Assembly: GCA_030643665.1 (NCBI GenBank)
Contig: DAOWKS010000004.1
Coordinates: 1 to 14,805 of the forward strand
Length of the DNA: 14,805 nucleotides
Direction of reading: 5' to 3'
Origin: a bacterium
Lineage (GTDB): Bacteria > Patescibacteriota > Minisyncoccia > Minisyncoccales > JAGMAB01
Made by a program: the position numbers and the translations under genes. Within the stretch, counting starts at the first letter, position 1. Each line of letters starts with the position of its first letter. Positions 1,128 to 14,538 of the stretch are shown here, in pieces. Under the pieces are notes generated by a model, which was not told the DNA's origin, made no database searches, and saw nothing but the letters and a program-made list of their open reading frames with translations.

Positions 1128-2249
1128 TTAGGATTTTTTAAGTATATGAACTATTACGCTGCCGCCGGCGCCGCCAATATTATGGCACAAGCCAATTTTG
1201 GGATTATTTTTTACCTGTCTTTCTTTACATTTCCCTCGCAGTTGATTGGTAATTTCATAAATCTGCGCGAGTCCGGTTGCTGAAATCGGATGTCCTTTAG
1301 CTTTTAAACCGCCTGAAACATTAACCGGCAATTTTCCATTCAAATTAACCATACCTGTTCTTATTAAATCCTTGCCTTTCCCAATTTCGGCAAAGCCCAA
1401 ATCCTCATAAGAAAAAAGTTCTACTGAAGTAAAAGCGTCGTGGACTTCCGCCACATCAATTTGTTCCGGTTTAATTCCTGCCTGTTTATACGCTTGCTGA
1501 GCCGCGAGACGGGTTGCCTTAAAATGAGTAAGAATCTGCCTGCCAAAAGTTAAAAGATAATCTGTGGCAAAGCCGGAGCCAATAATTTCAATGTCAGTTT
1601 TTTCTTGGGATAAAATTGCGGCGGCTCCTCCGTTCACTGAAAGAGAACAATCAAACAAACGAAAAGGCGAAGCAATTATCGCTGAGTTTTTTATTTTTTC
1701 CAGAGAAACCGGCCTTTTATAATAATACGCTTTTGGATTTAAAACAGCGTTTTCATGGTTTTTGAAAGCAATTAAAGCCAAATCATCTTCTGTCGCGCCA
1801 TATTTTCTCATATATTGCTGGGCAACCAAAGCATTTTGCACCGGAAAAATCATTCCCTCTGTTTGTTCAATATCTCTCTCCGCGGCTGATAAAATCCAAT
1901 CAACGGTCACCTCGCTGCGATTATCAACTAATTTTTCGCCGGCCACAACCAAAACATTTTTAAGATTTAAATGATTAGCAGTCCATAAGGCAAGTCCGCC
2001 GCCGCTGCAAACCGAAGGCGTCTCAATAATCGGCACATTTGTTTTGAATAAATCAGACACAAGAGAGATTTTATGGGTCTGGTGTTCGCCGCCGGCCGCG
2101 CTGGAAACAGTGCTCAAAACAATTGCGTCAATGTCAGAAATTTTCATTTTCGCGTCTTCCAACGCCTCTATTGCCGCGTCAAAAGCAAACCGCCACCAGG
2201 GTTTCTGAGAATAATTAAATTTTGTCATTCCAACGCCTTTAATATACAT
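1128..2249 (-). CDS. Thiolase-fold protein, archaeal-type acetyl-CoA acetyltransferase-like (373 aa)
   Basis: N-terminus MYIKGVGMTKF matches the thiolase I-x-G-x-G-x-T-x-F start. Candidate nucleophile Cys in PSVCSGGGLAL. GGLKAKGHPISATGLAQ carries the GHP-x-GATG-type His motif. C-terminal CHNIGGAGGSVIVHIL matches the HN-x-GG-type motif. The size (~370-390 aa) is typical of archaeal/SCP-x-type thiolases. Confidence 0.85.
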   Translation of the reverse strand: MYIKGVGMTKFNYSQKPWWRFAFDAAIEALEDAKMKISDIDAIVLSTVSSAAGGEHQTHKISLVSDLFKTNVPIIETPSVCSGGGLALWTANHLNLKNVLVVAGEKLVDNRSEVTVDWILSAAERDIEQTEGMIFPVQNALVAQQYMRKYGATEDDLALIAFKNHENAVLNPKAYYYKRPVSLEKIKNSAIIASPFRLFDCSLSVNGGAAAILSQEKTDIEIIGSGFATDYLLTFGRQILTHFKATRLAAQQAYKQAGIKPEQIDVAEVHDAFTSVELFSYEDLGFAEIGKGKDLIRTGMVNLNGKLPVNVSGGLKAKGHPISATGLAQIYEITNQLRGKCKERQVKNNPKIGLCHNIGGAGGSVIVHILKKS

Positions 2250-2375: not shown

Positions 2376-3086
2376 TCACTTACCTAATCTTCTTTGTCTT
2401 TTAAGAAAATTCTGGACTGCTTTTTCAAACTCTTCCGGAGAAAAATTCGGGAATAAGGTCTTGGTAAAATAATACTGCGAATTTGCCGTATGCCACATCA
2501 TAAATCCGGCTGAATTATGAGGGTCGCCCTGGCAGCCGGTTCTAATCACCAAATCAACCGGCGGCAGGTCTTTTGTCCATAAAAATCTTTTAATCAGTTC
2601 TCCGGTAATTCTGATTGCTTTTCTTTTGAGCCAGGCAGTAAGTCCTTTTGTCGCTTCCACCATTTCATCTGTGCCGTTATACGCCAAAAGAATGGTTAAA
2701 GAAAATATGTCGTATTTTTCCGTCTTTCTCATTAATTTCTCAATAATTCCTAAAGTTTTGGTTGGAAAAATTCCTTTGAAACGGCCTAAAATTCTAACCC
2801 GGACTTTATTTCTCTGAATTTTGGCGTCTTCAAGCAATCTTTGAAACTCTTTAGTCAGAAATTGAATCAGAAAATTTACCTCTTTTTTAGACCTATTAGT
2901 AAGATTATCATAAGAAGCGGCCCAAAATGTTAAATGAGGGATTTTCATTTCAATGGATTTATCCAAAAGTTTTTCTAATGTTTTTATGCCAACTCTGTGT
3001 CCTTGTTCAGGAGCAATCCCTTTTTCCTTTGCCCACCTCCGATTTCCATCAGGAATTATTGCCACATGATTAATTTGATTTTTCAT
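2376..3086 (-). CDS. uppS: Cis-prenyltransferase, undecaprenyl-diphosphate synthase family (236 aa)
   Basis: HVAIIPDGNRRWAKEKG matches the hallmark (I/M)DGNRRWA motif. Also present: WAASYDNLTNR (cf. FSSENWNR), VRVRILG, LLAYNG, PPVDLVIRTG and a C-terminal QRRLG. The block after RTG is divergent (RTGCQGDPHNSAGFMMWH versus the usual RTGGE-x-R-x-SNFLLWQ). Confidence 0.85.
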   Translation of the reverse strand: MKNQINHVAIIPDGNRRWAKEKGIAPEQGHRVGIKTLEKLLDKSIEMKIPHLTFWAASYDNLTNRSKKEVNFLIQFLTKEFQRLLEDAKIQRNKVRVRILGRFKGIFPTKTLGIIEKLMRKTEKYDIFSLTILLAYNGTDEMVEATKGLTAWLKRKAIRITGELIKRFLWTKDLPPVDLVIRTGCQGDPHNSAGFMMWHTANSQYYFTKTLFPNFSPEEFEKAVQNFLKRQRRLGK

Positions 3087-3135: not shown

Positions 3136-4932
3136 TCATATTTCCTGCCAGGCAGCAAGCAACGTGCCGGGACCGGCCTGGGCGCAAATTACTGCTGGCG
3201 CTAAACTAATAAAAGATACCTCGGCTTTTAATTTTTGTTTTAACATTTTTTTTAATTTTTCCGCGTCGTTAATATTATCGGCATGATTAATTACTACTCT
3301 GATTGTTTTGCCTTGTTTTCTGGCTTTCTGGCTTTCTTTTGATATTTTCTTAAACAACGCTTCAGCCATATCTTTTGCCCAGACAATTCCTGCTTTGGCA
3401 ATAAGACCGTTTTTTATTGCCATCAAAGGATGAAAGCGTAATTTTTTCATTCTTCCAATCCATTTTGCCTGGGATTTAGTCACTCTGCCGCCGGCCTCAA
3501 TCCATTTCGGGTCGTCAAAAATAATATATAAATGTGTCTTGGGAATTAGATTTTTAAGTTCTTTTATAACCTCGCTAATTTCTCTTTGCTCCTGAATTAA
3601 TTCTATTGCCCGCAGAACTAAAAGCGCCTGTCCGGCTGCTGCGGTTAAAGAATCAAAAACAAAAATCCGCTGCGGCTCTTTTACCATTGTTTCGGCCTGC
3701 TTGGCTGAATTATAGCAGCCGGAAAGCTTGGAAGTTATAGTAATACAAAGAATTTTATCAAACTTATTAAGCTGTTTTTCATAAGCGTCTAAATAAGATT
3801 TTGGCGCTGCCTGAGAGGTCTTAGGAAAGGCCTTAATTCCTTGCTTGTCTGCTTCTCGCATTTTTTGATAAATATTCTCGCCCGGTAAATTTTCGCCGGC
3901 TGACCAATCATATTTGGCAAAAGCCAGTTCAATTTGATATTTTTCAATAATCTTTGGCAAAAGCGCGGTAACATCTTCAGTAACAATGCCAATGGAAACT
4001 TTTCTCACTGATTCCTCTCCAGCCACTTCTTTAGCCATATCTTCTTCTCTTAAATTTAGAATTTTTCCGGCTGTGTTAATAACTTTTTTCACTTCGTCCG
4101 GATAATCAGTATGAATATGGATTTTCATTTTATTTCCGTGCCTGACTAAAACCAAAGAATTACCCAGACGATTTAATTTTTCTTTTATTTCTTCATCGCT
4201 TAATTTAGGTTCTTCAATTAAAGCCACTACTTCGTAGCGATTCACAAGAATCTGGACAAATCTTTTAATTTGTTCCGATGGTTTAACTGCCTCGCCCGCC
4301 ATAGCTTTAGCAACAATGGGTTTTTCTTCTTCTAACACATCTAAATAGCTCTCCAAAATCATTAAAAATCCCAAGCCGCCGGCATCAACCACATTAGCTT
4401 TTCTAAAAATTTCCATTTTTTCCCGGGTAGCTAAAAGAGCTTGTTGCGCTTTCTCAATTGCTTTTCTGAAAAGAATAATAATATCTGTTTCTTTGGCTGA
4501 TTCTTTTTTAATGGTTTCTGCGGCTGCTTCAATAACATCTAAAATTGTTCCCTCTACTGGGTTTTGAATTGACTGTCTGGCTTTTTCTTCGCCTTTTTCA
4601 AAAGCCAGGGCTAATTTTTTGGCATCTGTTGAATTTTTATCAAGACAGGGTAAAAATCCAGATAAAAAACCGGTATAAATTACGCCGGCATTGCCTTGAG
4701 CAAAAGCTAATGCTCCGTTCAAAGCAGCTTGGGAAAATTCCTCTAAGTCATTAAAATCCCTGTTTTCAATTGCTTGTTTTATTCCTTTTAAAGTAGCCGC
4801 TAAATTGTTTCCTGTATCCTGGTCAGGAACCGGGAAAACATTTATTTTGTTAATTTGCTCTTTTTCTCTCTCTATTTTTTCATAAGAAGAAAAAATCATT
4901 TTTTTAAACTCCTTTTGAGTTAAATGTTCCAT
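3136..4932 (-). CDS. Single-chain fusion: DAK2/DhaL-like (FakA/YloV-type N-terminal and central domains) plus a DegV/FakB-like fatty-acid-binding domain (598 aa)
   Basis: N-terminal part: INVFPVPDQDTGNNLAATLKG (cf. PDGDTGTN of YloV/FakA). Middle part: LGNSLVLVRHGNKMKIHIHTDYPDEVKKVINTAGKILNLREEDM (the YloV/FakA central block). From about aa 312 to the end it is DegV-like: VSIGIVTEDV, FPKTSQAAPKSY, ITITSKLSGCYNSAKQA, IFVFDSLTAAAGQALLV, IEAGGRVTK, VVINHADN, AGPGTLLAAW. Confidence 0.8.
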   Translation of the reverse strand: MEHLTQKEFKKMIFSSYEKIEREKEQINKINVFPVPDQDTGNNLAATLKGIKQAIENRDFNDLEEFSQAALNGALAFAQGNAGVIYTGFLSGFLPCLDKNSTDAKKLALAFEKGEEKARQSIQNPVEGTILDVIEAAAETIKKESAKETDIIILFRKAIEKAQQALLATREKMEIFRKANVVDAGGLGFLMILESYLDVLEEEKPIVAKAMAGEAVKPSEQIKRFVQILVNRYEVVALIEEPKLSDEEIKEKLNRLGNSLVLVRHGNKMKIHIHTDYPDEVKKVINTAGKILNLREEDMAKEVAGEESVRKVSIGIVTEDVTALLPKIIEKYQIELAFAKYDWSAGENLPGENIYQKMREADKQGIKAFPKTSQAAPKSYLDAYEKQLNKFDKILCITITSKLSGCYNSAKQAETMVKEPQRIFVFDSLTAAAGQALLVLRAIELIQEQREISEVIKELKNLIPKTHLYIIFDDPKWIEAGGRVTKSQAKWIGRMKKLRFHPLMAIKNGLIAKAGIVWAKDMAEALFKKISKESQKARKQGKTIRVVINHADNINDAEKLKKMLKQKLKAEVSFISLAPAVICAQAGPGTLLAAWQEI

Positions 4933-5015: not shown

Positions 5016-5693
5016 TTATTTGAATTTTTCTTCTAACTCTTTCAAAATTTTAGACGCTAAATCTTTTCCTCCCAAACCAAAAGCAATTCCTACTGCCAAA
5101 GCAATCATAGTAGTTACACCGATAAAAATAACCAAAATTAAAGTCGGGACAATATTTAACTGGTAAAGAATAGCCAAAATTACCAAAATCCAAATTGCCC
5201 AAGAAATTCCTTTTCCTAAAAAACGGGAATAAATGATTTTTTCTTTTTCCAAAGTGCCGATGACAATTTTTTGGGAAAAATTAACCAAGAAAACAGCCAC
5301 AATAAAAATCAAAACAGCAATAAAAATATTGTAAAAATAACCAATCACTTTTTCTAAAAAATGGCTTACTTGAAAAAGCCCGACAATTTCCGTGCAAGCC
5401 ATTAAAAACAAGATAACAACAAACCACCTGACTAATTCCCCGAAAATTCTTGATATTGGAATGTGAATATCTATTTTAGTCAGCGCTTCCTGCCAGCCCA
5501 TGCGCTTGAACAAATGATTTAGGCGAATCTTGTCCAGAAAAACATCTACTACTTTTCCAGCAACCTTAGCTGCAAACCAACCAATAAGAAAAACCAAAAT
5601 AGCCCACAAAATCTGAGGCAAAAACCCAATAAAACTTTGTAAAAACGTTGTAAAAATCTCTGACATAATATAATAATAATTATATTCTACCAT
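5016..5693 (-). CDS. Multi-pass membrane protein with conserved TM-helix repeats (MscS-N-terminal-like / TM_helix family); start ambiguous
   Basis: Repeated hydrophobic helix followed by a basic segment, e.g. ILWAILVFLIGWFAAKVAGKVVDVFLDK. Similar units occur later and the C-terminus is GLGGKDLASKILKELEEKFK. The ATG at 5693 overlaps the upstream gene by 7 nt. An alternative start MSEIF at 5666 is equally plausible. Confidence 0.55.
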   Translation of the reverse strand: MVEYNYYYIMSEIFTTFLQSFIGFLPQILWAILVFLIGWFAAKVAGKVVDVFLDKIRLNHLFKRMGWQEALTKIDIHIPISRIFGELVRWFVVILFLMACTEIVGLFQVSHFLEKVIGYFYNIFIAVLIFIVAVFLVNFSQKIVIGTLEKEKIIYSRFLGKGISWAIWILVILAILYQLNIVPTLILVIFIGVTTMIALAVGIAFGLGGKDLASKILKELEEKFK

Positions 5694-6235
5694 TTAGCTT
5701 TATGCAAGCCAAGTAAGAAGCCGATTCTATTAAAAATTATGTGTAAAAAAAAGGTTAAAATAAAAATAGTAACCCAAATAAATATATCAATTTTCAAAAA
5801 GCACGTCAAGAACAGCGCGGCGCCAAGCACATAATTTGTCTGGTCAAAAGGCAAGAATTTAGCGCCCGGCTTTAATTGCAAGCGGCGTTTAATAAAAGCA
5901 AAAAATAAATCGCCGAAAACAGCGCCGCCGGAAATCAAAAAACCAAAAAGAAAAATGTTGATTTGCTGATAATTAAGAAAAGAAATTTTTTGTATAAAAG
6001 AAAATTGAAAAAGTTCTGCCTGAAGCATAACTGTTAAAATTCCCATCAGCATTGCGAAAATTACTCCGCGCCAGGTTTTGTGGCTTCCTAAAATCGGCTT
6101 AGAGAGAAATTTTTTATTAAAATCAACCGGCTTGCCTAAAAAATCAAAAATCTTAATCCTGGCGATTAAAGGCGGAGTCATATTAGTAAAATACGCAGGG
6201 AGAAAAAAGTATAAGCAAGATAAAATGAATAACAT
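5687..6235 (-). CDS. CDP-archaeol synthase family (CarS / former DUF46-like) CTP-transferase membrane protein (182 aa)
   Basis: FFLPAYFTNMTPPL, then PVDFNKKFLSKPILGSHKTWRGV (cf. CarS D-x-G..GdGKTwrG). FGDLFFAFIKRRLQLKPGAKFLPFDQTNYVLGA matches GD-x-x-SF-x-KRR.....P..DQ. Several TM segments. The size is typical of CarS (~170-190 aa). Confidence 0.65.
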   Translation of the reverse strand: MLFILSCLYFFLPAYFTNMTPPLIARIKIFDFLGKPVDFNKKFLSKPILGSHKTWRGVIFAMLMGILTVMLQAELFQFSFIQKISFLNYQQINIFLFGFLISGGAVFGDLFFAFIKRRLQLKPGAKFLPFDQTNYVLGAALFLTCFLKIDIFIWVTIFILTFFLHIIFNRIGFLLGLHKAKW

Positions 6236-6322
6236 AATTTAAGAAAAAAATAAGAACCTTTCGCTTCGCTCAAGAACCTTGATTACTTCGTAATTAGAAA
6301 CATGAAATAATAAAAAGAAAAC

Positions 6323-6715
6323 TCATAAAGAAACAGCGTTTTCAAAATGGGAAATTTCAGATTGATTGTCTGGATTTATTTTAATGGCAATTACATCAAT
6401 CTGCCATTTTATGTCTAAAGGAATCTTGTTTTTTACCAGCCAAACTTCAGATACTTTTATCAATTTTCTCTGCTTGGCAAAATTTACTTTTTCCTCCGGT
6501 AAAATAATAGATTTATATCCGGGTCTAATTCTAATCGTTTTTACCTCAAAAAAACAAAAACTGTCTCCTTTCTTGGCAATAATATCTATTTCTCCCTTTT
6601 GAGGGCTTGATGAAAAACGAAAACAATAATTCCTGTCTAAAATTTTATAGCCCTTGTTTTTCAAATAACTCTCGGCGATTTTCTCGCCCAAATTGCCTGT
6701 TTGCCTTGTGTTCAT
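6323..6715 (-). CDS. yraN: YraN family (UPF0102) endonuclease-like protein; start placed at the internal Met
   Basis: TGNLGEKIAESYLKNKGYKILDRNY, GEIDIIAKKGDSFCFFEVKT, QRKLIKVSEVWL, QIDVIAI and HFENA match the YraN pattern G..GE..A..yL...Gy.il.rN...GEIDlI....l.FVEVK.R. The track ORF extends to 6781, but that extension overlaps the upstream NUDIX gene (stop at 6726). Met23 at 6715 avoids the overlap. Confidence 0.8.
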   Translation of the reverse strand: MNTRQTGNLGEKIAESYLKNKGYKILDRNYCFRFSSSPQKGEIDIIAKKGDSFCFFEVKTIRIRPGYKSIILPEEKVNFAKQRKLIKVSEVWLVKNKIPLDIKWQIDVIAIKINPDNQSEISHFENAVSL

Positions 6716-9136: not shown

Positions 9137-9158
9137 AACGCAACCAATTATACCTTTG

Positions 9159-9229
9159 TGGACTCAGCGAGAATTGAACTCGCATTTCCGCAATGCGAAT
9201 GCGGTGTAATACCATTATACTATGAGCCC
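9159..9229 (-). tRNA. tRNA-Ala (anticodon CGC), 71 nt, CCA not encoded
   Basis: Manual fold of the reverse complement: GGGCTCA TA GTAT AATGGTA TTAC A CCGCA TTCGCAT TGCGG AAAT GCGAG TTCAATT CTCGC TGAGTCC A. It has a G3:U70 Ala identity pair, T33 and A37. Downstream sequence is CAAAGG. Confidence 0.85.
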
Positions 9230-10465: not shown

Positions 10466-11362
10466 ATGGCTAAATTAAAAAAAGTTTTTTGCGCAATCTG
10501 TAAAAAACCTATTTATCGAAGCACAGGACGCATTAACGAAAATCTAAAACTGGGACACAATTTTTATTGTTCAAGAAAATGCTTATCTCAATACAGAACC
10601 AAAAAACAAGTAATTACTTGTGAAAATTGTGGCAAGCGTTTTGAACGAACTCCTTGCAAAATCTCTCCTCATAATTATTGTTCTCAATCTTGTACTGCAC
10701 AGGTCAATAACAAAAAATATCCAAAGAGAAAAGCAGAGTTAAAGACCTGTATAAAATGCGGCAAACAGTTTAAAAAAGGAAATGGAAATTCAAAATACTG
10801 TTCTGTAAAGTGCAGAAGAGAAGCGGAAAAACATGCTCCTCAACAACTCATAAAAATTATAAAGCAAACCGCTCAAGAATTAAAAAGAGTTCCGGCAAAA
10901 CGAGAACTAGAAAAAATTGCTGAGATTTGTAGGGATATTTTTGGCTCATGGAACAATGCTGTTATTGCTGCCGGTCTTCAACCGAACCGTTCACACAGTC
11001 AACGAATGTATAAACGCATAAATACCATAGCATCAGATGGACATATCTGTGATTCTATTTCTGAAGCTATTATTGATAATTGGCTTACAAAAAACAATAT
11101 TTCTCACGAAAGAAATGTATCCTATCCTGAAACAAATCACAAAGCAGATTGGGGCATTAAGTTTAGAGAAAAATATATATTTGTTGAATATTTCGGCCTT
11201 GCCGGAGATAGCCCTCGTTATGATCGTGCTATAAGAAAAAAGAGGAAACTTTGTCAAAAGCACAATCTTACTTTGGTTGCAATTTATCCACAAGATATTT
11301 ATCCTAAAAAATATCTTGATGGTAAATTAAGAGATAAATTTAAGGAACTAATAACTCTTTAA
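10466..11362 (+). CDS. Triple zinc-ribbon protein with a homing-endonuclease-associated repeat and a C-terminal Vsr/DUF559-like (PD-(D/E)xK-type) nuclease-like domain (298 aa)
   Basis: Three C-x2-C...(F/Y)CS-x2-C units (FCS/TRASH-like): C9/C12/C35/C39, C52/C55/C72/C76 and C95/C98/C112/C116. AQELKRVPAKRELEKIAEICRDIFGSWNNAVIAAGL resembles the 'grvPt..ey......i.r.FGSWn.AlraAGl' repeat found in homing endonucleases. The C-terminus is DSISEAIIDNWLTKNNISHERNV....HKADWGI....IFVEYFGL.....YDRAIRKKRKLCQKHNLTLVAIYPQDI (E...D...E-x-x-G, restriction-endonuclease-like). Confidence 0.6.
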   Translation: MAKLKKVFCAICKKPIYRSTGRINENLKLGHNFYCSRKCLSQYRTKKQVITCENCGKRFERTPCKISPHNYCSQSCTAQVNNKKYPKRKAELKTCIKCGKQFKKGNGNSKYCSVKCRREAEKHAPQQLIKIIKQTAQELKRVPAKRELEKIAEICRDIFGSWNNAVIAAGLQPNRSHSQRMYKRINTIASDGHICDSISEAIIDNWLTKNNISHERNVSYPETNHKADWGIKFREKYIFVEYFGLAGDSPRYDRAIRKKRKLCQKHNLTLVAIYPQDIYPKKYLDGKLRDKFKELITL

Positions 11363-11367
11363 TTTTG

Positions 11368-11441
11368 TCGGAGCGACTGGATTCGCACCAGCGATCTCCT
11401 CGTCCCGAACGAGGTGCGTTAGGCTACTACGCTACGCTCCG
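11368..11441 (-). tRNA. tRNA-Pro (anticodon CGG), 74 nt, CCA not encoded, atypical D- and T-loops
   Basis: Manual fold of the reverse complement: CGGAGCG TA GCGT AGTAGCCTA ACGC A CCTCG TTCGGGA CGAGG AGATC GCTGG TGCGAAT CCAGT CGCTCCG A. Acceptor, D and anticodon stems are perfect; the T stem has one G:U pair. G37 is present. The T-loop reads TGCGAAT rather than TTCGAAT, and the D-loop lacks the GG pair. Confidence 0.75.
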
Positions 11442-13044: not shown

Positions 13045-13116
13045 GTCCCCGTGGTATAATGGATAACACGAGGCGCTTCGGACGCCTAGTTGAGGGTTCG
13101 AGTCCTTCCGGGGGCA
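13045..13116 (+). tRNA. tRNA-Arg (anticodon TCG), 72 nt, CCA not encoded
   Basis: Manual fold: GTCCCCG TG GTAT AATGGATA ACAC G AGGCG CTTCGGA CGCCT AGTT GAGGG TTCGAGT CCTTC CGGGGGC A. It has T33 and G37, a canonical GG D-loop and a canonical TTCGAGT T-loop. Downstream sequence is CAAACG. Confidence 0.85.
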
Positions 13117-13161
13117 CAAACGCTTCACTAAATTAAAAGTGAAAAATTATTTTATATTAAA

Positions 13162-13680: not shown

Positions 13681-14436
13681 ATGGATAAATCAAAGTATTC
13701 AAAATTAAAAAAGGAAGCAATTAAATTACGAAAGAAAGGATTAAGTTATAGAGAAATAGGAAAAGAGTTAGATGTAGCAAAGAGTACAGTTAGGTTTTGG
13801 TGTATAAATGTTCCTTTAAGTCTTGAAGACCGAGAACGGCTTTATACAAAACAAGTTTTACTTTTAGCCAGAGGACCAAATAGTCAAAAAGAAAGAAGAA
13901 AAAGAGAAATAGCAAAAATTATTAAAGAAGCCGAAAAAGAAATTCATCTTCCTCTTTCTTTTGAAACATATCGCTTTTTAGGAGCAGCTTTATATTGGTC
14001 AGAAGGAAGTAAAACAAATCATTTTGCTATTACAAATTCCGATCCTCATTTTATACTTTTTATGGTAAGATGGTTTAACCAAATTTTCAAAGTTTCTACG
14101 AAATATCTAAAAGCGAAACTTAATATCTATCCTCAACAAAATGAACAGGAAATAAAACAATTTTGGTCGCAATTAACTGGTATTCCTCTTGAAAATTTTG
14201 GCAAAAGTTTCGTAAAACCTCCCAATAAAGGATATAAGAAAAACAATCTTTATTACGGAACAATAAGAATTGTGGTTCCAAGGGGAACTGATATGCGTCA
14301 TAGGGTTTTCGGCTGGGTAAAGGCAATACTAAAAAATATAGAACCTCAAACAGAATTAGTACAAAAAGAATGGAAATCACTTAGAGAAGTTCCTCGACCG
14401 ATAAATATCCCTGAAAAATTAAATTTGCCCCGCTAG
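13681..14436 (+). CDS. HTH plus LAGLIDADG-like putative homing endonuclease (251 aa); the stop codon lies inside tRNA-Lys
   Basis: N-terminus: LRKKGLSYREIGKELDVAKSTVRFW (resolvase/sigma-r4-like HTH). The core FLGAALYWSEGSK resembles a single LAGLIDADG-type helix ending in an acidic residue plus Gly (..lyw(A/S)EGs). The downstream basic beta-rich region YYGTIRIVVPRG is consistent with that fold. The last 10 nt (14427-14436) overlap the tRNA. Confidence 0.45.
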   Translation: MDKSKYSKLKKEAIKLRKKGLSYREIGKELDVAKSTVRFWCINVPLSLEDRERLYTKQVLLLARGPNSQKERRKREIAKIIKEAEKEIHLPLSFETYRFLGAALYWSEGSKTNHFAITNSDPHFILFMVRWFNQIFKVSTKYLKAKLNIYPQQNEQEIKQFWSQLTGIPLENFGKSFVKPPNKGYKKNNLYYGTIRIVVPRGTDMRHRVFGWVKAILKNIEPQTELVQKEWKSLREVPRPINIPEKLNLPR

Positions 14437-14499
14437 CTCAATTGGTAGAGCAGGAAACTCTTAATTTCAAGGTTGTAGGTTCGAGTCCTGCGCGGGGCA
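14427..14499 (+). tRNA. tRNA-Lys (anticodon CTT), 73 nt, CCA not encoded
   Basis: Manual fold: GCCCCGC TA GCTC AATTGGTA GAGC A GGAAA CTCTTAA TTTCA AGGTT GTAGG TTCGAGT CCTGC GCGGGGC A. It has T33 and A37, and one G-A mismatch at 27:43. Downstream sequence is CAAGCG. Confidence 0.85.
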
Positions 14500-14538
14500 C
14501 AAGCGCTTCGCTAAATGAAAAACTAAAAATTTAAAATT

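Follow-up and report, generated by a model that had tools for sequence, protein, structure and literature searches.

Single-chain fusions of a FakA-like kinase module and a FakB-like DegV domain in Patescibacteria: candidate fatty acid kinases for membrane lipid synthesis

We carried out a computational analysis of a 14,805-nucleotide stretch of DNA from a patescibacterium (contig DAOWKS010000004.1 of assembly GCA_030643665.1; henceforth referred to as the window), focusing on one gene on its minus strand which encodes a protein of 598 amino acids. We found that this protein combines, within a single chain, the N-terminal (N) and middle (M) domains of the fatty acid kinase (Fak) subunit FakA with a complete DegV domain of the kind found in the fatty-acid carrier FakB, and that this domain identity is supported by three independent methods. 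Based on its sequence and on the genes to which its relatives are linked, we propose, with a probability of about 0.72, that the protein is a single-chain fatty acid kinase feeding acyl-phosphate to the acyltransferase PlsY. This would probably give the cell a direct way from free fatty acids to the acyl-phosphate with which membrane-lipid synthesis starts.

Domain architecture of the fused protein

The gene is a 598-codon open reading frame (ORF) with an ATG start and no internal stop (Table 1). An initial annotation, made from the DNA letters alone, had described an uninterrupted ORF of this length (omitting that it lies on the minus strand) and had read it as a FakA-like kinase module and its FakB-like DegV partner in one chain; Pfam, NCBIfam, PDB and Foldseek comparisons agreed with this. 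All the motifs that it quoted were found in the translation, namely PVPDQDTGNN (residues 34-43), KIHIHTDYP (270-278), LREEDM (294-299), IGIVTED (314-320), FPKTSQAAP (369-377), ITITSKLSGCYNSA (397-410), GGRV (481-484), VINHADN (547-553) and AGPGTLLAAW (586-595). Profile hidden Markov models (HMMs), by which it had proposed to define the domain borders, placed a Dak2 domain at residues 34-196 (Pfam, E 2.5e-31), the FakA-like middle domain FakA-like_M (PF21645) at residues 232-303 (E 2.1e-13) and DegV (PF02645) at residues 314-591 (E 5.2e-45; 154 bits against a cutoff of 27; model positions 2-273 of 280). The C-terminal domain of FakA, FakA-like_C (PF13684; FakA_C below), had no match in the protein even at E ≤ 1, meaning that the C-terminal 290 or so residues, which might have scored as an ordinary FakA_C, came out as DegV instead.

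Searches of other databases gave the same picture. Among the NCBIfam models, YloV (TIGR03599) covered the protein over model positions 1-301 of 530 only, and DegV (TIGR00762) was matched with 181 bits, above its cutoff of 99.7. A sequence search of the PDB aligned residues 2-303 with residues 2-320 of Streptococcus suis FakA (E 3e-36) and residues 313-591 end to end with Staphylococcus aureus FakB1 (E 1e-25, 27% identity); the PDB, Pfam and NCBIfam match scores are all far beyond chance. The Dak2 domain also aligned with S. aureus FakA_N structures in the PDB search. An AlphaFold2 model had a mean predicted local distance difference test (pLDDT) score of 79.9, with well-folded domains and low-confidence linkers at residues 204-232 and 298-312. 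Foldseek gave template-modelling (TM) scores of 0.85-0.91 between the Dak2 domain and FakA_N, and superposed the DegV domain on the whole of FakB1 and on other DegV structures (TM 0.79-0.85 over approximately 288 residues).

The fusion is a genuine gene and is widespread in Patescibacteria

Two neighbouring genes, one fakA-like and one degV, could appear as a single long ORF if a sequencing or assembly error had merged them at the junction. Such an origin is extremely improbable here. The frame is continuous, with neither a stop nor a frameshift at residues 304-313, and a 99%-identical protein from an independent assembly is likewise fused. The best 120 database homologues, drawn from JGI, ENA, NCBI and Logan assemblies, all have the same three Pfam domains (120/120; 64-99% identity, 581-617 amino acids), and the more than 120 homologues at 64-87% identity are all fused. 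Among representatives at 50% identity, we found 900 clusters at E ≤ 1e-30, and 119 of the best 150 were N+M+DegV fusions. Altogether, Patescibacteria proteins with this architecture number in the hundreds and come from independent assemblies. A GTDB scan covering one genome per species recovered approximately 29 full-length fused genes, all of them in Patescibacteria (Parcubacteria, Paceibacterota, Nealsonbacteria) and one in a complete genome of 689 kb. Nealsonbacteria thus carry the fusion according to both searches (P0015 among the homologues; loci L009 and L028 in the GTDB scan). The closest relative of the window was a Candidatus Parcubacteria metagenome-assembled genome (L001), in which the fusion is 87% identical. 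Orthologous loci, which the initial annotation had envisaged as possibly holding two separate genes, overwhelmingly hold one.

The junction itself is strongly conserved. The peptide (L)REEDMAKEVxGEESVRKVS (residues 294-313; window 3994-4053) hardly varies in the close family, and across 48 homologues nearly every one of residues 294-318 is invariant or at least 90% conserved. The pLDDT of the AlphaFold model drops below 50 at residues 298-312, which suggests that this segment forms a flexible tether; being conserved and yet apparently flexible, it may dock somewhere during catalysis.

An observation in favour of a merger is that the two parts do occur separately in some lineages. Natural split forms include N+M-only proteins of approximately 271-299 amino acids, which end just past the middle domain, at the junction (the P0184 cluster, with 11 members of mostly 281 amino acids, as well as P0147, P0164 and P0171), and a free DegV protein (P0131) which begins at the junction (MIQKTSIGVVTEDI...), like a split-off partner. 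In a rough neighbour-joining (NJ) tree the N+M-only forms group inside the same Patescibacteria clade as the fusions; our NJ trees were computed without bootstrap and offer hints only. Considering the continuous frame, the more than 120 fused homologues, the approximately 29 species genomes and the near-invariant junction, we ruled out a merged-gene artefact.

The C-terminal domain resembles FakB rather than the C-terminal domain of FakA

FakA_C is itself a decayed FakB-like domain which binds FakB (PMC9136124), and its fold corresponds to that of FakB minus three segments which roof the fatty-acid tunnel (PMC9136124; PMC10848957). We therefore aligned the DegV domain of the query with both S. 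aureus FakB1 and S. suis FakA_C. In this three-way alignment, the three tunnel-forming segments of FakB that are deleted in S. suis FakA_C are present in the query (approximately residues 338-368, 465-480 and 572-581). FakB1 residues T62, S95 and R173, the last of which is needed for phosphotransfer (PMC9136124), correspond to T372, S404 and R483 of the query, and S. suis FakA_C has Leu and Ser in place of Ser404 and Arg483. In a census of approximately 350 fused homologues, with identity to the query down to 27%, T/S372, S404 and R483 were conserved at 97-100%. Such conservation is the pattern expected of a working substrate-carrying domain rather than a docking remnant, and points to purifying selection on the functional residues of the fused proteins. 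Judged by these residues and segments, the C-terminal domain is a genuine FakB-like DegV domain and not a FakA_C-like one. An ordinary FakA_C was ruled out by the absent PF13684 match, the restriction of the YloV match to model positions 1-301 and the retained tunnel segments. The suggestion of the initial annotation that the FakA C-terminal domain had been replaced by FakB is accurate insofar as DegV occupies the position of FakA_C, although “replaced” implies a direction of evolution which goes further than this.

One could nevertheless imagine that docking or regulation is the main role of the fused DegV domain, as a less decayed equivalent of FakA_C that is not productively phosphorylated, and that free DegV/FakB paralogs are the true substrates. 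Many relatives indeed encode stand-alone DegV proteins next to or near the fusion (1-3 per locus, sometimes in tandem; Table 1), which would need a kinase, and FakA_C offers a precedent for a FakB-like structure that binds FakB. These paralogs share 38-61% identity with the fused DegV domain and have the T, S and R residues conserved in 22/22 cases, and in another rough NJ tree the free and fused Patescibacteria DegV domains are mutual closest relatives. Furthermore, the carboxylate ligand His270 of FakB1 corresponds to a variable position, being Gln585 in the query (codon 3178-3180, minus strand), His in 88/120 close relatives, N, S or A in fused forms of the Clostridia type and mostly L, I or H in free Patescibacteria DegVs. 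By contrast, the three functional residues and the tunnel segments lost in FakA_C are kept in very divergent fused proteins, the window and several other loci have no free DegV near the fusion, and fusions that additionally contain PlsY (see below) have the T, S and R of their DegV domain intact. We consider it unlikely that the fused domain serves mainly for docking, and maintain that it would carry the substrate. The presence of the paralogs does mean that “self-contained”, as the enzyme had been described, is only partly apt.

The kinase module and the replacement of a disputed cysteine

In the same census, the ATP-site residues D37, D39, T40 and N43 were essentially invariant (97-100%), and the two histidines of the middle-domain HxH motif, H272 and H274, were near-invariant (97-100%). 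A different picture emerged at residue 234. Here the query has Glu (codon 4231-4233, minus strand), as do 120/120 close relatives, in place of the canonical FakA_M Cys (S. aureus C240, S. suis C244). The signature RYEVV is found throughout the Patescibacteria clade, in fused proteins, split forms and PlsY triple fusions alike, as opposed to RYCTE with the Cys, which is kept in Clostridia-type fused forms and in canonical FakA. Mutation of this Cys inactivates both S. aureus and S. suis FakA (PMC9136124 and a second structural paper), and two structural papers dispute whether it belongs to a catalytic triad or to a structural zinc finger. Given that Glu replaces Cys in the whole clade while the HxH motif is retained, a thiol-based catalytic role appears unlikely, provided that the Glu-bearing proteins are active. 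The fourth metal ligand, H226 in S. suis, could not be mapped reliably onto the middle domain of the query.

Work on a truncated enzyme is relevant to how such a module might function without FakA_C. S. aureus FakA_NL, from which the C-terminal domain has been removed, still phosphorylates FakB-bound fatty acid, with a Km 10-fold higher than that of the intact protein (0.99 vs. 0.09 µM; PMC9136124). This is a deficit of the kind that a covalent tether would remove, and by analogy we infer that tethering of the carrier makes a recruiting C-terminal domain unnecessary.

Links to PlsY and phospholipid synthesis

One indication of the product comes from proteins in which PlsY is part of the same chain. 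PlsY (PF02660)-Dak2-M-DegV triple fusions exist in Patescibacteria, where one cluster has 12 independently assembled members (866-868 amino acids) and others (NCBI MEK7482616.1 and MDD5144625.1) lie on contigs of 197 kb and 235 kb. As PlsY consumes acyl-phosphate, these triple fusions constitute “Rosetta-stone” evidence that acyl-phosphate is what the kinase would make. In 13/34 genome loci, moreover, full-length PlsY genes lay no more than a few kb from the fusion.

The wider neighbourhood is also related to lipids. A gene order consisting of a CarS-like cytidylyltransferase, a small membrane protein, the fusion, UppS or DegV paralogs, and a thiolase is kept in approximately 22-25 loci, and the thiolase-like protein is the most conserved neighbour (70-97% identity across loci). 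Orthologous loci, represented here by L002 (5054-8717), have further genes inserted between YraN and CarS-like, encoding PlsY (5054-5704 in L002), a HAD hydrolase, a free DegV, a CDP-alcohol phosphatidyltransferase and a PHP protein. In the window, by contrast, YraN abuts the CarS-like gene directly (6235-6323), and the PlsY/HAD/DegV block is missing at the locus. The orthologous loci are a phospholipid gene cluster (PlsY, CarS-like cytidylyltransferase, CDP-alcohol phosphatidyltransferase), in which the CarS-like protein, a member of the CDP-archaeol synthase family, is probably the analogue of CDP-diacylglycerol synthase. Its gene overlaps by 7 nucleotides with that of the 225-residue membrane protein, which may act together with the kinase at the membrane. 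The fusion, UppS and the thiolase-like gene, separated by gaps of 49 and 126 nucleotides, are probably in the same transcription unit; promoter and terminator scans found nothing above background.

A source of acyl-phosphate has been missing from published accounts of some of these bacteria. Probst et al. reported PlsY and PlsC from Nealsonbacteria, but not PlsX, and asked what makes the acyl-phosphate there (PMC7242380). The fusion, which is present in Nealsonbacteria, is the obvious candidate.

Proposed mechanism and points against it

We propose the following scheme. The DegV tunnel would take up a free fatty acid, the carboxylate of which would be held by T372 and S404 beneath R483. The middle domain would dimerise the protein, and the tether of approximately 15 residues would bring DegV to Dak2, either of its own chain or of the other one, in a manner resembling the encounter of DhaK with DhaL, so that ATP-Mg on D37/D39 could phosphorylate the carboxylate. 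PlsY would receive the acyl-phosphate at the membrane and use it to acylate glycerol-3-phosphate, with later steps carried out by the CarS-like cytidylyltransferase (encoded in the window) and the CDP-alcohol phosphatidyltransferase (encoded, like PlsY, at orthologous loci). In those Patescibacteria that are reported to lack PlsX and acyl carrier protein (ACP), this would be the route for scavenged fatty acids into phospholipid. In those relatives that have free DegV paralogs, the kinase module may serve these too.

Several observations weigh against a fatty acid kinase of this kind. First, the protein scores far below the cutoffs of the NCBIfam models for FakA and the FakB1 equivalog (YloV TIGR03599, 258.9 vs. 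396.1 bits; FakA_VfrB NF038248, 146.1 vs. 975; both for the whole protein; FakB1 NF038249, 129.3 vs. 350). Second, the Glu at the FakA_M Cys position extends over the whole Patescibacteria clade, and the Gln at the FakB His270 position is rare (2/120 close relatives). Third, neither PlsY nor a free DegV was found within the window. Finally, the inter-domain arrangement in the AlphaFold model is not confident (predicted TM score 0.52; whole-chain superposition on S. suis FakA, PDB 7W7H, with a root-mean-square deviation of 31 Å), which leaves phosphotransfer in cis or in trans a matter of conjecture.

The fusion outside Patescibacteria

When we searched with P0219, a divergent fused representative that shares 27% identity with the query, the fused architecture also turned up in Anoxynatronum, Tindallia, Clostridium tagluense, Anaerotalea, Alkalibacter, Halanaerobium and Bipolaricaulota. 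The members from Bipolaricaulota and from cultured Clostridia and Halanaerobiales rule out the fusion as a genome-reduction trait specific to the Candidate Phyla Radiation (CPR). The initial annotation had suggested that a self-contained enzyme would fit a reduced-genome lineage thought to rely on scavenged lipids, but the fusion is not an adaptation specific to reduced genomes, given the same architecture in Clostridia and Halanaerobiales; its description of Fak as a two-protein system in Firmicutes proved incomplete for the same reason.

In two of these genomes, those of Anoxynatronum buryatiense and Clostridium tagluense, the gene directly after the fused one encodes a membrane protein of approximately 258 amino acids, similar to DUF1295/steroid-5-alpha-reductase/PEMT proteins, and PlsY is not nearby. 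The fused gene and the DUF1295 protein form a conserved two-gene module in ordinary Firmicute genomes. With this neighbour, the Clostridial fused gene has no support as a positional orthologue of yloV.

Because Clostridia-type fused genes are away from PlsY and beside a DUF1295 protein, their clade may act differently. This raises the question of whether the query, too, binds a different ligand (another carboxylate or lipid) or has a signalling role, like the FakA-dependent effects on SaeRS, outside the PlsY pathway. The invariable association of the Clostridial forms with the steroid-reductase-like protein, the FakB1 equivalog score below its cutoff, and the Cys-to-Glu and His-to-Gln changes are all compatible with an altered function. 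However, the clade of the window is linked directly to PlsY, by fusion and by synteny, and all the solved DegV proteins that were matched by Foldseek bind fatty acids. A different ligand or a signalling role is thus quite unlikely, and we favour the supply of acyl-phosphate to PlsY.

Evolution and significance

A bolder proposal, which is possible but doubtful, joins two claims. The first is that, in Patescibacteria without PlsX, ACP and type II fatty acid synthesis, acyl-phosphate comes from the single-chain kinase alone, which would then be an obligatory gate for every membrane acyl chain. If this were true, with only the PlsY step supplied, it could go some way towards explaining why CPR bacteria are reported to be enriched in lysolipids. 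The second is that Dak2-M-DegV represents the undecayed, ancestral Fak, from which canonical FakA and FakB would have arisen by duplication of DegV into free FakBs and decay of the resident copy to FakA_C. The N+M tree included a single canonical FakA lineage, of streptococcal sequences at ≥90% identity.

Thousands of such proteins are in the databases under generic names (“DegV family protein”, “DAK2 domain-containing protein”, “DhaL domain-containing protein”), and these entries could be given a more informative annotation. In the literature outside most subscription journals, we found neither a description of the fusion nor a link between Fak and CPR bacteria; the nearest we found is a remark, made in passing, that DegV sometimes occurs alongside other domains in one protein (PMC12288450). 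Although the inference follows readily from domain annotation, it would close a gap which has been pointed out in the lipid biology of CPR bacteria, and it is relevant to the mechanism and evolution of FakA. It offers a concrete candidate answer to the printed question about the source of acyl-phosphate in Nealsonbacteria and other CPR bacteria without PlsX or ACP (PMC7242380), and is thereby relevant to the way in which membranes are built from scavenged lipids in ultra-small symbionts. The family may also be seen as a natural experiment on the Fak mechanism, in which the C-terminal domain of FakA would be dispensable once the carrier is tethered, N+M-only split forms occur, and a whole clade presumably works with Glu in place of the disputed Cys. 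Lastly, a fatty acid kinase in one polypeptide, as well as its PlsY-fused version, could be a convenient part for lipid synthesis in synthetic cells and useful for biochemical or structural capture of the phosphotransfer complex.

Other features of the window

The window has a G+C content of 33.6%. Besides the genes described above, it contains four tRNA genes and two proteins encoded next to tRNA genes, one with an HNH_repeat and one with a helix-turn-helix (HTH) domain, which may be related to mobile elements (Table 1).

Table 1 Coordinates of the fused gene, its domains, its neighbours and related loci. Positions refer to the window unless a locus is named.
Feature	Position	Strand	Basis or remark
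Whole ORF, putative single-chain FakA(N+M)-FakB(DegV) protein, 598 amino acids	3136..4932	minus	ORF list; Pfam, NCBIfam and PDB matches; homologues
Dak2/DhaL-type ATP-Mg domain, residues 34-196 (PVPDQDTGNN at 4804-4833)	4345..4833	minus	Pfam, PDB, Foldseek
FakA-like middle (dimerisation/metal-site) domain, residues 232-303	4024..4239	minus	Pfam PF21645; HxH of KIHIHTD present
Junction/linker between middle domain and DegV, residues 304-313	3994..4023	minus	Continuous frame, conservation, AlphaFold pLDDT
Complete DegV/FakB-like domain, predicted to bind fatty acid, residues 314-591	3160..3993	minus	Pfam, TIGR00762, FakB1 alignment, Foldseek
Membrane protein, 225 amino acids, MS_channel transmembrane-helix repeats, upstream	5016..5693	minus	Pfam PF05552; directly upstream of the fusion in ~25 Patescibacteria loci
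CarS-like/CTP_transf_1 cytidylyltransferase	5687..6235	minus	Pfam PF01864 E 8e-30, PF01148 E 8e-8; syntenic in ~22 loci
Undecaprenyl-diphosphate synthase (UppS), immediately downstream	2376..3086	minus	Pfam Prenyltransf E 3e-52; also downstream in L001, L019, L020, L029
Thiolase-like protein, downstream	1128..2249	minus	Pfam Thiolase_C_1 E 6e-44; in most loci
tRNA-Ala (CGC)	9158-9229		
tRNA-Pro (CGG)	11367-11441		
tRNA-Arg (TCG)	13045-13117		
tRNA-Lys (CTT)	14427-14500		
Cys-rich protein, 298 amino acids, homing-endonuclease-associated HNH_repeat	10466-11362	plus	Adjoins tRNA gene
HTH protein, 251 amino acids, central ...YWSEGSK... segment	13681-14436	plus	Segment like ORF in L033 (6455-7081); adjoins tRNA gene
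Free DegV paralogs	L019 9687-12970; L029 9258-12526; L025 13216-15055; L033 9962-11810; L032 9938-10870		Synteny
Clostridia-type fused gene and DUF1295 protein	L035 8001-10581; L037 8001-10593		Gene neighbourhood

Comparison with known systems

Among known systems, FakA (YloV/VfrB; S. aureus, and S. suis PDB 7W7H) shares with the query the Dak2/DhaL domain with PVPDxDTGxN and the FakA_M domain with HxH. It differs in having FakA_C (PF13684; approximately 220 amino acids, FakB-docking and without a fatty-acid tunnel), where the query has a DegV domain of 287 amino acids, and in its zinc-ligand or catalytic Cys, which is Glu in the query. FakB1 and FakB2 share the full DegV fold (TM approximately 0.8), the equivalents of T62/S95/R173 and the tunnel-forming inserts, but are free, diffusible proteins of approximately 290 amino acids, whereas the DegV domain of the query is tethered to the kinase and has Gln for His270. 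FakA_NL (Subramanian et al. 2022, PMC9136124), the laboratory truncation in which N and middle domains alone are a competent kinase for FakB-bound fatty acid, has natural counterparts in the N+M-only proteins (approximately 281 amino acids) of the same Patescibacteria clade; it pays with a 10-fold poorer Km for FakB, and the query instead has its substrate domain covalently attached.

The single-chain dihydroxyacetone kinase of Citrobacter freundii (DhaK-DhaL) is similar in that a single polypeptide combines an EDD-fold substrate domain with a DhaL/Dak2 nucleotide domain and works as a dimer, as proposed for the query (PMC10848957). Its domain order is K-L, as opposed to L-M-DegV in the query, it has no middle domain, and it acts on dihydroxyacetone, held as a hemiaminal, rather than, as predicted for the query, on a fatty acid in a tunnel. 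Finally, the PlsY triple fusions, members of the Glu-for-Cys clade like the query, contain its module of kinase and carrier and add an N-terminal integral-membrane acyl-phosphate:glycerol-3-phosphate acyltransferase, which in the case of the query is neither fused nor encoded nearby.

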